NCBI GenBank assembly: GCA_903813345.2 | Contig: CAIIXF020000001.1 | Location: forward strand, 20,336,001 to 20,400,000 | Reading direction: 5' to 3' | Source of the DNA: Owenia fusiformis | Taxonomy: Eukaryota | Length of the DNA: 64,000 nucleotides | Shown here: in pieces, positions 34,717 to 49,700 of the stretch | How positions within the stretch are numbered: the first letter of the stretch is position 1 | Layout of the letters: each line of letters opens with the position of its first letter | Made by a program: the position numbers and the translations under genes | Notes under the pieces: generated by a model | What the model was told of the DNA's origin: nothing | The model's input: the letters and a program-made list of their open reading frames with translations, nothing else | The model's database searches: none

Positions 34717-37700
34717 ATGGCGGATGGATTGAAATTTTTGGTTTTGTCTTTTCTTGCTGGTAAGGAACTGTTTCTGTTGAATTAAATCTATATTTCTTAT
34801 AAATAATATAGATTCTGATAACACTTTACTACGCTGAACCTAGTAGTATTTTTACAATGGACTTACATGCATGGAGTGTCTCGAAATTATGGATATCGAG
34901 TTTCGTTTCTGAACTTGCAAATTGCAGTGCAATGTTGACCATGATTTTTATGCAAGGAGGATTGGAAGCCAGGGTTCCAACTCGATATTCTTTAATCTCC
35001 ACGCATGCGTCATTTGCTATTCGTGTCTGTATAATTTGTACGACTGCATGGAGAATGACCCGATACTCTCCAACAAAGTTATCGCTAGGTGATTGTTTTG
35101 CAGAATATCGGTGTTGCATTCTGGGAGCCAATCCTCCTTGATTTTTATGTCAACTTTGATCCTGAAAAATAAGAAAAATGGTATAATATTCAACACGTAT
35201 CTAGTTACCAGTCTGCCACTGTGCAATATGTACTAAAAACCCCTAGCTTACATTGTTAACTCAACAGCAACATCCTGGTGACAACTTGAAAGTGTTGTTA
35301 TTTCTGACATTATACATGTAACTCTACCAAATTGTTGTGCAACTAGCCATAGACTCCACATTAAAGGGACAAAGTGCGTAAATGAAGTCTCACTTTTGAT
35401 CTTCATAGTATTTCCAATGGATAAATAAGTACCCGATCTTTCATTTGACACCAAAAACAGCTCAAACAGACCACATCAGAGTTGACACTAGATAATAAAA
35501 AAATATTTTTGATCTATCAATTTATATGTGTCAAGTTTTTAGCCATGCCATAGATAGATGGCATTGTTGTTTGCATTAATTATCCATTCATTTTGATAGG
35601 ATTTTCAAGCATACGCCATCTTTTAATCCAAGAGTTATTTAAAACATCCACAAATGTGAAAAGTGGTAATTCACTTTTTTCAGTCTCTGAACTTCAAATC
35701 CCGTTTTCTATGCGAGTAATTTTTTTTTCAGTTCAGTATTATACCAAATTAAAGTTTTTATCATATTTGATTGGCTGTGTGAGTGACATGTCTCATATAA
35801 TACTTTGTCCTTTTTCCTTCCAAAATAGGCACATTGCCTCCATGTTCAGAATTTTGCTGCAACCCTCAATAGTTATCCAGTGCCAGGACTATAGTCCTGA
35901 GAAAGTCTCAATCTTTTGCCTGTACGATTACAACATGGGAGAATTTTCTACGCCTCTTACACTAAGACTCTTACACTAAGATACCTACTTCAATAGATCC
36001 CTGGGTATTTTAGCATTCTTTTTGTGCAGTTGAATCCACAATTATCAGGCAAAAGATTGAGACGTTCTCAGTTATCCTGTGCCAGGACCATAGTCCTGAG
36101 AATGTCTCAATCTTTTGCATACATGTATCAATTAACGGTATTCTTTATATTTACCTTGATTGTAGGGTTTGTCTTTAGCGTGGATGTTCCTCCAAAATGG
36201 GGTAGCTTCTATACTGTTTATGGTACCCTGAGGTTACCTTACGCAGAACTTGCCGAGCCGTTTGCTGCATATTATGATAGTGCTGCAAAGAAAAGCAGAA
36301 TAGATTATTATGGCAGTAAGTTTTATACCATTTGAATGTCTATGCACAATATAGTTACTATGTACAATATAGGCCTTAATGGTACCCACAAAAACTTTAG
36401 ACCTTCCTTAACAACATGTGAGAATATAAGCCTATTAATGAAAGTAATAACTGAGATATAGCTTTTTGCAAGGGTTTACTTTTTTGGACCACCCTGTATA
36501 TAACATACATTTATTTTTAGCTACTGTGAAGACATTCCAGCGGGCAGATCTTGGTTCATTTGGTGTAAACAATAAGGTGGCTTTTATGTCAACAGACACT
36601 GTCTTTAACAAGAGGACGTGTTTCCAGTCCAATGGTACTAAGGATGCACCTGTCACCATTCAAGGTGTACTTCCAAACCTCACTGACTTCAAGGTGAGTC
36701 ATATCTAATATTGAATCCTGAATATCGACATTGTGAGGGTAGCCTATATGTAGAATTGTTTCCAGGAACAAGTCGACATTACAGGAATTTGAGATTTTGA
36801 AAAAAGATTTGCACCATACCTGAAAATCAATTAGCAGTCACTTCAATTTCAATTTATTAAATATATATACATACAACAATACAAAGATGATGAAGGGAGA
36901 GAGACACCACTGAAAGGTGTATGATGCCCCTTATAACAATAAAAGATTCATATGAGTTTGCAAGTATTTCAAACATCATGCAATATAGGGTGTACTAAAA
37001 CAGCACAAATGATACCATATTAATTCCCTTATTTAATGATAATATAGGCTATTAATTTATGAATGAAACAATCAACAAGCAGGTAAACTAAAAAATCATA
37101 GAATGCTTAATTATTCCAGTTGATCAAGAAAGGTGATGAAGTGAGATTCAATGACATGTCAGATATGTGGCAGAGTATCAATAAGGTTGGAACCAAGAAG
37201 AACACTTACACCATGTGGGTGAAGAGTGACACCCAAGAACCTATTCGGTATGAGATGATGGGCTATGATACCCTCCTGGGGTCGCATTATGACAAGTACT
37301 ACCTTGACTACCAGAACTTTGACAACACGAACAGACCAAAGCCAGAGATTTTTGCAATCCAGGAAAGTAAGTAAACAAAACCAATCAGCTAAACCAATCA
37401 GCGACGATGTCATCTCAATACAGATTTACATAATAAGCGTATGTCATCTGGGGTCTCTCCCCCTCTTCTTAAGGCCTATGGATTTGAAGTTGTTATTTTT
37501 GTATACATTGCATGGCACATTATATAGAATCTGCCTGAATGGACATTGAAAAATATTATATCTGATTATTCTGGAGAAATTTCTAGTAAACTCAAGGAAA
37601 TATTAAGCAAATATTAATCCTATTACAGTGAAACTTGTAAAATGGACACTGCATCAAATGTGGAATTTCTAGTAATTTCTAGACGTGCTTAGTCAGTCTA

Positions 37701-46700: not shown

Positions 46701-49700
46701 TCAATGAAATCTGAAGTTCGAAGTCCATATCTAAACTTTGTATGATGAAACAAAACCAGAAGTCTTATATCATAAGTCTACAAAATATCCGAATGACTTA
46801 ACTAATGCCATTTTGAAATATAAAATGTTATTGAATAATATAAACACACCAGCATAAAAAAAAATCAACAAAACAATATAACAGCGACCAAACAAAATCG
46901 CTTGTTGCTCAGATGTCTATGGCTTTACTGTGTCAGAGCATGATGATGAAATTACCATTCGCCTGTGTTTAATAGGCTCAAACAGAGCTTCATACTATTT
47001 TCGTTTCAAAATCTCTTAATTTTCAAATGGGAGACGAATTTAATTTTTGTTTTGAGGTGAATGCGATTTTTGTGAGATGGATTGGTCAGGACAATGCGAT
47101 TTTCTTTTCGAGCGATGGACGATTGACACAATATCGCGTCTTCATTACGTACGCCTTCCATTAGATTGGTAATCGTGTGTTTTCATTTCGAAGCATATCA
47201 ATATTTAAATCTAATTCTTTCCTCAATTGCGATGCTAGATCTAGTAGTTCAGTTATTTGTGACATTTGACGAATTTATCTAAATCGCCAATCATAATCAG
47301 GCTTTGATTAGATAGGTGGCCGAAAAGGGGATCCTGTTACTAATTTTATGGAGGGGGGTGTATGTAATATTGACCACCATCCAAACAATTATTTTCTGCA
47401 CTATAGGAGAGAAGTACTCTAAAAAGGGTTTCAAAAAACTATTTTGAATCATCGTTCTGTAATTGTGCAAAGGAGTTTTTGTTTTTAGCGTAACGTACAC
47501 TGTATTTTAATTTTTGTTTGCTTAATAAGATTAATTTCAATATGATTCGCAAGTATGATCACTGCATCAAATGTGGAGTTTCTTGCAATTTCTAGACGTA
47601 GGATGGTCTAGAAACTCCGCGTATCTACGGGGAGAGGCAACTTAAATGAATATGCTAATTGCGTCCATAGGCGAAGCGAGGGGGGGGTGCAATAAAAAAA
47701 ACACGAGAAAGAAAAAGCTCAATTTTGAAGAAATGTTTGTAAATTCAAAATAAATCTTATTTTCATGGCTTGTTTATGCAACAATCGCAACCCCGTGACT
47801 GAAAACCGAAAAGTTTTTGGCGATCGCACCCCCCCCCCATCCTGAATGAAAGCTGGTTTCGCCCCTGCCCTATATCAATTAGTAATGATACATTGCATAC
47901 ACAATATGAACACATAGTTTTTTCATCCATTTGGTCAGACGCACAATAATAATACTATTCTTGTATCTTGCTTGATACCCGGGGCTTGATGTAACAACTT
48001 GATAGATGCCCGGGAAAAATTATTTTTACTAGTTATCAGTACAGCTTGTTTGGTATTTTACAACCTTTAAACAGTACGTGATTTATTATTCAATCATATG
48101 TAAAACGTCATGGTATACGTGAACAGTTTGTTATACAAAATAATAAATAAAATAGATAAAAGATAAAAAGAAATCAGTATAGTTGATCATAATTGCTTAT
48201 AACAATATACATTCATCTGATTCGATAATTACTTTATTCTAGATTTCAATCATTAGTCTCAAGGCGTGCCAAGACTTTTTGTCACACTCTAAGCACGTCT
48301 TTGCACTGCGTGTGCTTAGACGTGCCTAGAGATGTCTAGAGTTGGTTTCATCGCGTACCTAGACGTGTCAAAACTAGTCACGCCTAAGCACCCGGTGTGC
48401 TTAGACTTAGTTTCTAGACGTGCTTAGTCTAGAAATTCCATTTTTCACGCAGTGGGAACACCTCTGTTAGTGGAACACTTCTCAGCGTCGCAAGACAAAC
48501 TGACTTAATGTCAAATGAACCTATACAAGTGGAACACCTCCCAAGTGGACCACCTTTAGAAGTAGCAAATGTGTTCCACTTACTAGACAGGTTTTACTGT
48601 AGTCCGGGGAATATAACAGCATTCCTTCATTAAATCTGAAGTCTCATAAACTCCTCTATCCACTTCACCTAATCCAGTTCACCTAATCCACTTCACCTAA
48701 CATAGAGTAAATGGGCAACAAGGGCTCGTTGCAATACTACCACTATAATAAACACATGTTCTCCTGTATACGTATATTAATTGTGGGCACCATTTTGTAG
48801 ATCTGACATGTGGAGGGTTCCCAGGGCCAGGTGTAGAACATAGAGTACTGAGCAACCCAATGCAGGAGTACATACATAGAGATGACAGCCATACTCAAAC
48901 AGAGTTTGCACACTTCAAGAAATACCACAACAGGCAATATGTTGATAAAGAACACCAGGAGAGGGAGAATGCTTTTAGGCAAAATTTCAGGTATTCTGAT
49001 TTCTGTAGTTACATTTCTGTAGTTACAGCTAAGCCAATGTGTTTGTGTAAATTAGCTTTATGTTTGGCATTTTTATGTCACCACTATGAATTGAAGCCAA
49101 TCGTTGTTACCAGTGTTGGGTGGTTAGCACCTGTAACAAATGTTACACTTTTGTAACCATTTGCAGGTGGTGCGATTTTTCATGTTTTTAGTACCTTGTA
49201 TACAATGTGAAGTCTCGCAATATTTCGGTCATGATTTATTTGGCTCTCATAACAATGCTTTAATCACGCGGTACAAACTTCGACCGTTAATTGGAATTTT
49301 TGACCTACCAGATGCTCAAAAATCAAGGATTGCGAGTCTCATACTACACTGTTTTTCTTGAAACTTATACCATTAAAAGCAAAACAAAATTGCCTTTCTG
49401 TCGGTGCATTACTTTATTGTAAAGAGTCCCTCGTTCTAGCAGCGTTTTGGTCCCCAGCTGTTAGAAGGCCTTCTTACAGCTGGGGACCAAAGAGAATAAT
49501 GTACCAACAGAAAGGGATTTTTGTTATGCTTTTAATGGTATAAGTTTGAAGAAAAACGGTGCAGTATTACATTTATTTATACATGTAATGTACATTGTAA
49601 TATCTTTCAGATATGTTCACTCCAAGAACAGAGCGGGCTTGACATACAGACTGAAAGTGAACCACCTAGCTGACAGGTTTGATCATGAGCTGAAGTACAC

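Follow-up and report, generated by a model that had tools for sequence, protein, structure and literature searches.

The 64,000-nucleotide stretch of the Owenia fusiformis genome analysed here (the window) carries a papain-family cathepsin gene, one intron of which is occupied almost entirely by a large transposable element (Table 1). The exon after the invaded intron gave a weak I29 match (E 0.004), and a Pfam search placed Peptidase_C1 matches in four downstream exons. Reads of RNA run X21 cover the cathepsin exons; neither a splice joint across the invaded intron nor an empty-site joint is among the 15 RNA joints listed (774 more exist). The original prediction held that the element makes up about 95% of the intron and that its excision would shrink the latter from 11.4 kb to about 0.6 kb. 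The measured share is 94.5%, and removal of the element and one TSD copy takes the intron from 11,434 to 623 bp. Joining the flanks without the element restores, as had also been proposed, a MITE of the kind found intact elsewhere in the window: the product (37626...48599) is 163 bp long, TA-flanked, and aligns end to end with the copy at 56799-56961 (78.5% over 149 bp).

Table 1. Features of the invaded cathepsin intron and its surroundings, in window coordinates
Feature	Position	Strand	Remarks
Cathepsin exon (papain-family, I29-bearing) upstream of the invaded intron	37120..37366	+	In-frame join to next exon; GT at 37367
Invaded intron	37367..48800	+	11,434 bp, GT 37367 to AG 48800
Exon downstream of the invaded intron	48801..48990	+	Joins 37120..37366 in frame
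Host MITE, 5' 21 bp, TA-flanked	37626..37646	+	Ends in left GGA (37644-37646)
Non-autonomous element, lineage A copy	37647..48454	+	10,808 bp
Left end: 26-bp TIR and subterminal repeats	37647..37816	+	First 28 bp: 73 genome matches
Insertion private to this copy (at most 2 others have it)	38272..39010	.	Clean TIR/TSD not found
MITE-like unit bounded by TIRs, backbone-fixed	39255..39541		
TIR element of about 1 kb, TA duplication, backbone-fixed	42798..43761		Smaller TIR unit inside at 43518-43677
Palindromic backbone MITE	44856..45874		Interrupted in this copy by the 633-bp insert
Private 633-bp insert	45002..45634		TGTTA...TAACA ends, 5-bp TSD ACATT
Inner truncated left end	47560..47627	+	Orientation as outer left end, 13% diverged from it
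Right end: subterminal repeats and TIR	48240..48454	+	
Right GGA (48455-48457) and rest of host MITE	48455..48599	+	TA comes next
Intact host MITE copy	56799..56961	+	Substitute for the empty site

The element has CACTG...CAGTG termini. Its left end reads CACTGCATCAAATGTGGAATTTCTAG and its right end, read inward, CACTGCGTGAAAAATGGAATTTCTAG, the TIRs being identical at 22 of 26 positions, and the insertion is flanked by a GGA TSD. Repeats of the CGTGCTTAG/CTAAGCACG type are found near both ends (e.g., at 37682, 37728, 37788, 48289, and 48417), giving each end the direct and inverted subterminal repeats by which CACTA/EnSpm elements are recognised. The CACTA-like termini, 26-bp TIRs, subterminal repeats, and GGA duplication had all been anticipated, as had the lack of a transposase-sized open reading frame; the longest stop-free frame in the interior is 125 aa. 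Three inserts are private or nearly private to this copy. A 95.7% copy of the 633-bp insert is located at 30232-30863, and a relative of the palindromic MITE lies outside the element at 49260-49567. The inner left end lies 0.9 kb inward of the right end; after it comes a small MITE-like repeat with GC ends.

Searching the genome with the TIRs returned 73 left and 69 right matches, compared with 0 for each reversed-pattern control. These form 50 pairs of 5,363-22,242 bp (median 10,057), so that the other full-length copies which the original prediction had proposed to look for do exist. Exact 3-bp TSDs of varied sequence flank 21 of the 23 assembled pairs, with no duplication reaching 4 or 5 bp, and all five additional complete copies likewise have exact 3-bp TSDs. 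The family numbers about 50-70 young copies, 1.2-3.0% away from their consensus, and the 50 paired copies amount to about 0.55 Mb, or 0.11% of the genome. Pairwise divergence is 0.98% and 0.80% at the two ends versus 2.0-4.0% in interior windows, a measure of end conservation that is biased upward because copies were chosen by end similarity.

We considered whether the locus might simply hold a one-off stack of independent insertions between ends paired by chance. The three private or near-private inserts are what such a pile-up would leave, but 84% of the cathepsin copy is backbone, collinear with at least 5 of 22 other, dispersed copies, each of which has its own TSD, and this explanation is already refuted. 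Nor does the interior consist wholly of later nested insertions, a finding that the original prediction had named as grounds for its own refutation: only about 15% of the copy is not common to the others. Trees built from consensus positions 800-2460 and 9900-11810 yield the same clades; thus, about 10 kb moves as one unit, as had been supposed. Almost certainly, the element is one member of a young, multi-copy family of non-autonomous cut-and-paste DNA transposons that have CACTG ends, subterminal repeats, and 3-bp TSDs. The data show that a non-coding backbone of about 9-12 kb is carried whole between the two ends, and that the copies then diverge through deletions and through other elements inserting later.

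Inside, the element consists of non-coding DNA together with old nested MITEs, and the backbone is fixed in the family rather than being cargo acquired at this locus. The longest frame in the ~12-kb family consensus is 151 aa, and an Rfam search gave 0 matches. Repeats located outside the family match at least 20% of the consensus, so part of the backbone length is plain accretion. The original prediction had read the interior as captured host DNA. Pack-TYPE and Pack-CACTA elements are defined by a valid interior match to host coding genes (PMC8903248), and the animal Pack-TIR survey calls for an unambiguous parental copy of at least 90% identity without TIR association (PMC8277862). At an E-value of 0.001, Pfam matched none of 85 window frames (at least 45 aa) and none of 77 frames (at least 40 aa) from other segments and lineages, a test of gene capture whose scope is Pfam on frames, with UTRs and short exons outside it. 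One Pfam match at E 0.0086 fell below the cut-off and was taken as chance. Three tiles, representing about 2.3 kb of the 12-kb consensus, were used to look for donor loci, and no terminus-free donor was found among the 40 scored in each case of 61, 1134, and 246 candidates, respectively. A candidate at C11:13.36 Mb (82%) turned out to be an older, decayed relative that is collinear with the backbone and resembles another old copy, in which a mutated right TIR is retained; a second candidate, at C11:8.39 Mb, is a fragment of 1.4 kb that lacks termini and is not a clear donor. With no Pfam match and no donor locus found among the frames and candidates scored, the designation "Pack" (gene capture) is unsupported.

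Classification of the family as CACTA/EnSpm, which must be regarded as putative, rests on its ends and TSD. Its CAC(T)...(A)GTG termini with short TIRs are those by which CACTA/EnSpm elements are defined (PMC12730594), and its 3-bp TSDs conform to the 2-3 bp that the original prediction gave as typical of CACTA/EnSpm. No transposase remnant was detected in 85 frames of the cathepsin copy, and mobilization would depend on a CMC/EnSpm-type transposase encoded elsewhere, which would bind the subterminal repeats and cut at the two outer TIRs. The genome contains, outside the element, 14 matches to the PF02992 profile and 35 in a protein search. Nine identically scoring PF02992 matches represent a single 14.5-kb element, read in 3 copies, whose right end is CCCCGG, and two represent a 9.6-kb CCTTG element with 2-bp TSDs; having CC...GG ends and 2-bp TSDs, the intact Transposase_21 families were rejected as autonomous partners. 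Protein-match regions at C3 (two), C10, and C2 were rejected as well, since they have neither a family end nor a CAC TIR with a 3-bp TSD. In all, nine regions around transposase matches have other ends or none, and none of the listed TIRs is closer than 100 kb to any transposase match. A search with PF12940 (RAG1) yielded no match, nor did its controls. The autonomous EnSpm element with the same TIRs that the original prediction suggested seeking was thus not encountered among the transposase matches examined. A looser TIR pattern has 433 matches in the genome, 100 of them listed.

An alternative that concerns the enzyme only is that the mobilizer belongs elsewhere in the CMC/Transib clade, e.g., to a Chapaev lineage making unspecific 3-bp TSDs. 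Chapaev3, Chapaev, and Transib elements share CAC...GTG ends with the family, and Chapaev TSDs are 3-4 bp long (PMC4079192); the described animal CACTA (TRC) elements have CCC ends and 2-bp TSDs, and no cognate transposase emerged from the matches examined. However, the Chapaev3 TSD is TWA (PMC4079192), which occurs in 1 of 21 cases here, while Chapaev TSDs reach 4 bp and the TransibSU example has 5 bp, as compared with an unspecific 3 bp here: none is 4 bp, and 5-bp TSDs are seen in 0 of 23 pairs. Furthermore, CAC...GTG ends with a 3-bp TSD are used to class elements as EnSpm (PMC12730594), and arrays of subterminal repeats are characteristic of CACTA elements (PMC8978399). We consider a non-EnSpm enzyme unlikely.

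How did the backbone become so long? Two features bear on this question. The first is the inner left-end relic, which belongs to the lineage A backbone: of 40 matches scored, about 38 reach at least 89%. Large copies, an older copy, and a fragment account for all of the 40 except one, which is an outer left end. In an older copy (5-7% diverged), the relic keeps a stretch matching the outer left end. It and the right end share no TSD, and the 50 pairs, none of which is below 5.3 kb, include no short element running on its own from the inner left end to the right end. The relic could be a later insertion or a local duplication. The second feature is a sister lineage, B, which shares the left ~3.5 kb of lineage A (its left 3.3 kb is 1.9% from the A consensus) and has a different, satellite-bearing right half with a right end that is 21.9% different. 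All four B copies read have the same junction, a TSD flanks each of the three complete ones, and the lineage is monophyletic (support 1.0), an older outgroup copy having the A layout. Among the loci examined, B-specific DNA matched B copies only. Two further right-end variants have still other DNA upstream; a presumed new right half at C11:8420734 is actually an A copy with a 5.6-kb insert. An internal end relic in direct orientation and halves from different elements are the marks of a composite or hybrid, and both are present. Of the "Pack-CACTA or composite" originally suggested, the composite part is supported and the Pack part is not, there being no coding fragment and no donor among the scored candidates.

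The truncated inner left end, together with the swapped right half of lineage B, leads us to favour growth by end recruitment, which we give an even chance of having brought the backbone to its present length. On this reading, the left end lying near a right end would have been damaged, leaving the relic at 47560-47627; that right end would have found a partner in an intact left end ~10 kb upstream, and the DNA in between would have been taken along, in keeping with the neighbouring-element model described for Pack-CACTA of plants (PMC6379663, PMC8903248). Lineage B would be a repeat of the process, combining the A-type left 3.5 kb with a satellite-bearing right half ending in a sister family's right end, followed by amplification. 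The DNA taken along would be intergenic, repeat, or sister-element DNA, not genes. The parental tandem arrangement for hybrid formation was not found.

It is also conceivable, and a possibility to be taken seriously although we would not bet on it, that the family is a deletion derivative: the non-coding part of what was once a large autonomous CACTA-type element, whose exons were lost and in which MITEs accumulated over time, with the inner left end a later nested insertion, lineage B a recombinant of two families, and no host DNA captured. The intact 14.5-kb Transposase_21 element of this genome confines its transposase frames to about 3 kb, the rest including tandem arrays and MITE pieces; B-like tandem arrays occur inside CACTA-type elements, this one included (see also PMC1636069); and no donor was found among the scored candidates. 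On the other hand, 85 frames contain no transposase remnant, the longest consensus frame is 151 aa, no coding relative with the family TIRs was found among the transposase matches examined, and short derivatives are absent among the 50 pairs. Quite improbable, in our view, is an origin of the Pack-TIR type, in which gap repair or template switching would have brought DNA into the interior of a small element that transposed afterwards. Such capture is known from animals, with multicopy cases (PMC8277862), and the sharp, single junction of lineage B would fit a template switch. Nevertheless, it leaves the inner relic and B's different right end unexplained, and no parental locus appeared among the scored candidates.

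The closest counterparts of the family are the plant and fungal non-autonomous CACTA/EnSpm elements of the "non-Pack" class (Gisby and Catoni 2022, PMC8903248), with which it shares CACT(G) ends, short TIRs, subterminal repeats, a 3-bp TSD, and the lack of a transposase or coding match; it differs in its animal host, in the length of every paired copy (at least 5.4 kb), and in its cognate transposase, which is predicted. Arabidopsis Pack-CACTA elements (Catoni 2019, PMC6379663) have the same end anatomy and show signs of hybrids formed from two elements' ends in direct orientation, whereas no gene fragment or donor was found here and hybrid formation is deduced from sequence, not observed. Animal Pack-TIRs, as described by Tan 2021 (PMC8277862), have in common non-transposase DNA between TIRs, an animal host, and recurrent transposition with distinct TSDs; they require an unambiguous parental copy, were sought at <5 kb, are mostly hAT/TcMariner, and are rarely multicopy (four cases in reference genomes), compared with ~50 paired copies of ~10 kb here. 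Animal CACTA "TRC" elements (SmTRC1, PMC1636069; Spongebob, PMC4298943), intact members of which occur in the Owenia fusiformis genome, probably belong to the same superfamily; according to those reports, they have CCC-type ends and 2-bp TSDs rather than CACTG and 3 bp, and no end sequence in common with the family. Our literature search, which covered main texts, turned up no paper that directly describes an animal family of this kind.

We conclude that this is a new, large, non-autonomous CACTA-type family. Without donors or a cognate enzyme, it would be a large but ordinary non-autonomous one; were donors to be found, the plant model of neighbouring-end capture would extend to animals, in which multicopy Pack elements were rare in a survey restricted to inserts <5 kb (PMC8277862). 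More speculatively, and with the odds against it, an animal CACTA-type lineage with plant/fungal-style ends may repeatedly build 5-20 kb elements by pairing the ends of neighbouring copies, so that host non-coding DNA would be carried, kilobases at a time, in dozens of copies; this would be an animal counterpart of Pack-CACTA capture, above the size range of the published animal survey and possibly still polymorphic. The family's ends predict an animal transposase whose insertions have CACTG termini and 3-bp TSDs, in contrast to the CCC termini and 2-bp TSDs of animal CACTA elements in the reports cited. A gene-less 10-kb unit can multiply to dozens of copies in an animal, and one insertion step can inflate an intron about 18-fold.

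The element in the cathepsin intron has 26-bp TIRs that match at 22 positions, CGTGCTTAG-type repeats at both ends and a GGA duplication, so that the CACTA-like termini, imperfect TIRs and subterminal repeats described in the original prediction were recovered. Excision had been expected to restore a MITE, and when the flanks were joined without the element, they did form a 163-bp TA-flanked MITE, aligning along a second copy in the window. The element comprises 94.5% of its intron, close to the ~95% proposed, and the 623 bp that remain are of a size with the adjacent introns of the gene (one of 426 bp, the next ~620 bp). 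The reading frame is preserved across the join of the exons on either side, and the exons downstream encode a papain-family protease.

Features of the window (C1:20336001-20400000), with positions in window coordinates
Feature	Position	Length	Remarks
Element	37647-48454	10,808 bp	GGA copy on either side
Invaded cathepsin intron	37367-48800	11,434 bp	
MITE aligned by the joined flanks	56799-56961		
Inner left relic	47560-47627	68 bp	truncated second left end
Later insertion in the element	45002-45634		5-bp TSD
Twin of the later insertion	30232-30863		
Tandem duplication	50538-50798	~155 bp	90%; takes in the acceptor site and first part of a cathepsin exon
Tandem array	4569-7575	140-bp unit	~330-bp inverted repeat nearby
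Tandem array	22218-25504	110-bp unit	
Palindromic element	2152-2683	530 bp	

With the left 214 bp as query, the 40 matches scored (of 328 candidates) were 98-100% identical, as were the 40 scored (of 195) with the right 216 bp. Genome-wide, TIR patterns with at most one mismatch occurred 73 times for the left and 69 times for the right end (controls, 0), confirming that copies exist elsewhere; they formed 50 pairs (spans 5,363-22,242 bp, median 10,057, total 551,898 bp) and left 23 left and 19 right matches without a partner. Exact 3-bp TSDs of varied sequence, one of them TWA, flanked 21 of 23 assembled pairs, among which there was no 4- or 5-bp TSD; one of the two exceptions has a locally duplicated right end, the other a damaged terminus. 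All five further complete copies had a 3-bp TSD. A looser TIR pattern gave 433 matches (100 of them listed, and inner relics included) versus 3 in controls, which indicates that more diverged relatives exist. The element is a member of a real, young and large non-autonomous CACTA-type family, and not a single event. Animal EnSpm families with CACTG-type ends may be on record in Repbase.

Measured against 22 other copies, 85% of the element is common, in the same order, to at least one, 84% to at least five and 67% to at least 11, and the non-shared part represents later insertion, as at 45002-45634. We therefore discarded the possibility that the interior consists wholly of later nested insertions. 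Other copies hold inserts of their own, up to 12 kb; the copy at C4:17859654 (locus L087) carries a LINE-like 4.7-kb insert (element 2462-7143) with a 1226-aa frame, a poly(A) end and a long TSD. Copies lie 1.2-3.0% from the 12,030-bp union consensus and differ pairwise by 0.8-1.0% at the ends and by 2-4% in the interior, which is what a requirement in cis for the ends alone would predict, with the contrast inflated by our choosing copies by end similarity. Trees from two regions ~9 kb apart gave the same clades, so the backbone has been inherited whole through several source lineages. Collinear sharing with at least five copies, TSDs of their own and congruent trees show that the family moves as a unit, of ~10 kb as predicted. 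Also as predicted, there is no transposase-sized ORF inside: the longest consensus frame is 151 aa, Pfam matched none of the 85 frames taken from the window or the 77 taken from other segments and lineages, and there was no Rfam match. In the DNA regions compared, repeats that lie outside the family match at least 20% of the consensus, and one backbone MITE alone drew 1134 candidates. Ends, relic and recognisable inserts, with boundaries set by us, make up ~42% of the element; the remainder is AT-rich DNA without assignment.

The suggestion that this interior is host DNA acquired by Pack-type capture found no support here. By the definitions in two papers, a Pack-type interior matches host coding genes (PMC8903248) and Pack-TIR elements have a unique parental copy (PMC8277862). 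Interior frames had no Pfam match, and three tiles, ~2.3 kb together with 40 candidates scored for each, revealed no donor locus; donors may still exist beyond this coverage. Tile 40520-40990 (40 of 61 scored; the loci read leave out several matches without a paired TIR) had a single clear outlier, which turned out to be an older, decayed relative. Consensus 8270-9180, absent from the window copy, was found at 16 loci, each of them inside a pair or a short way upstream of a right TIR; the remaining candidates (40 of 1134 scored) were a MITE. Matches to tile 46640-47540 (40 of 246 scored) were all 90-100% identical and adjoined a family TIR, except one terminus-free fragment.

CAC...GTG ends with a 3-bp TSD are the EnSpm signature in the excerpt of PMC12730594. 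The autonomous EnSpm transposase with the same TIRs that had been anticipated did not emerge: no cognate enzyme with the family ends was found among the Transposase_21 elements and regions read. The intact elements have CC...GG ends, with 2-bp TSDs in the family for which both ends were read, and thus resemble animal TRC elements (CCC-type ends, 2-bp TSDs) as described in excerpts of PMC1636069 and PMC4298943. One, of 14.5 kb, was read in three copies that are 99.9% identical (L105-L110 and L120-L122; C1:24.23 Mb, C6:14.0 Mb, C9:16.1 Mb), and has nine equal-scoring matches, tandem arrays at its termini and a right end that reads CCCCGG; a second family, of 9.6 kb (L115-L118; C4:5.89 Mb, C12:9.37 Mb), has two copies 99% identical, CCTTG...CAAGG ends and 2-bp TSDs. 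Contigs C3 and C10 also carry a group of Transposase_21-like frames, more distant and without recognisable ends, which is a candidate source of the enzyme. Alternatively, the mobiliser may be another CMC enzyme. Chapaev3 was excluded by its TWA preference (excerpt of PMC4079192) versus one TWA TSD here, and Transib by its TSD length (excerpt of PMC4411706) versus 3 bp here.

The empty site expected in other haplotypes is so far a hint: one record among the DNA contigs of run X3 aligns with 37485-37646, ends at the last TSD base and has seven letters left over, as an empty allele might. Exon reads of raw DNA run X24 (~3-fold single-copy depth) differ by 6-10 letters, so that its source is probably a sister species or a population that has diverged. 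With 186 reads at 37695 in the left end versus a depth of 0.2-0.3 in unique interior bins, the ends seem to be common in that source and the interior of the window copy absent or >10% diverged.

The inner left relic points the same way as the outer left end, is 0.9 kb away from the right end and lacks most of the subterminal repeats. Of the 40 matches to it that were scored, about 38 were such relics in A-type copies, the lineage of the window copy, and one is also present in an older C11 copy (5-7% diverged). At L178 (C10:16933300-16938999) the relic contains a 4.4-kb insert (reverse strand, 170-4581) with CACTGTGG-type TIRs, a 4-bp TSD (CAAA) and a 174-aa frame that we take to resemble the N-terminal part of Chapaev transposase. 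Sister lineage B has in common with A two short blocks and the left 3.3 kb, which lies 1.9% from the consensus of A; at a point identical in all four copies read, B changes to a satellite of ~2 kb, followed by other DNA and then a right end 21.9% different from that of A; TSDs flank all three complete copies, and 23 of 43 matches to tile 40520-40990 end at the same point. Because lineage B forms a monophyletic group (support 1.0) and the layout of A is also found in an older outgroup copy, B is probably derived. Among 21 pairs with a right end outside the A list, one proved to be an A copy carrying an insert, another four were assigned to B on reading, and 16 were left out of the reading. Two more right-end variants adjoin still other upstream DNA, and one such locus also has the left module at ~80%. 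Older, rearranged relatives cluster at C11:13.355-13.64 Mb (L155, L166, L170, L171), where a CAC-to-CAA change common to three right TIRs suggests local duplication of one dead copy. Partial A-type stretches at L133 (C2:13.36 Mb) and L159 (C11:8.39 Mb) both start at consensus 10025, one of them directly after a variant right TIR.

The original prediction had also raised a composite transposon, and the inner relic and the half-swap of lineage B speak for that part, but the loci read included no parental tandem arrangement and no donor. Together with the right-end variants, they fit a model, given in excerpts of PMC6379663 and PMC8903248, in which ends of two neighbouring elements that face each other would move together. 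Judged from these sequence relationships, recruitment of ends is a plausible origin of the family's long backbone, with the chances evenly balanced.
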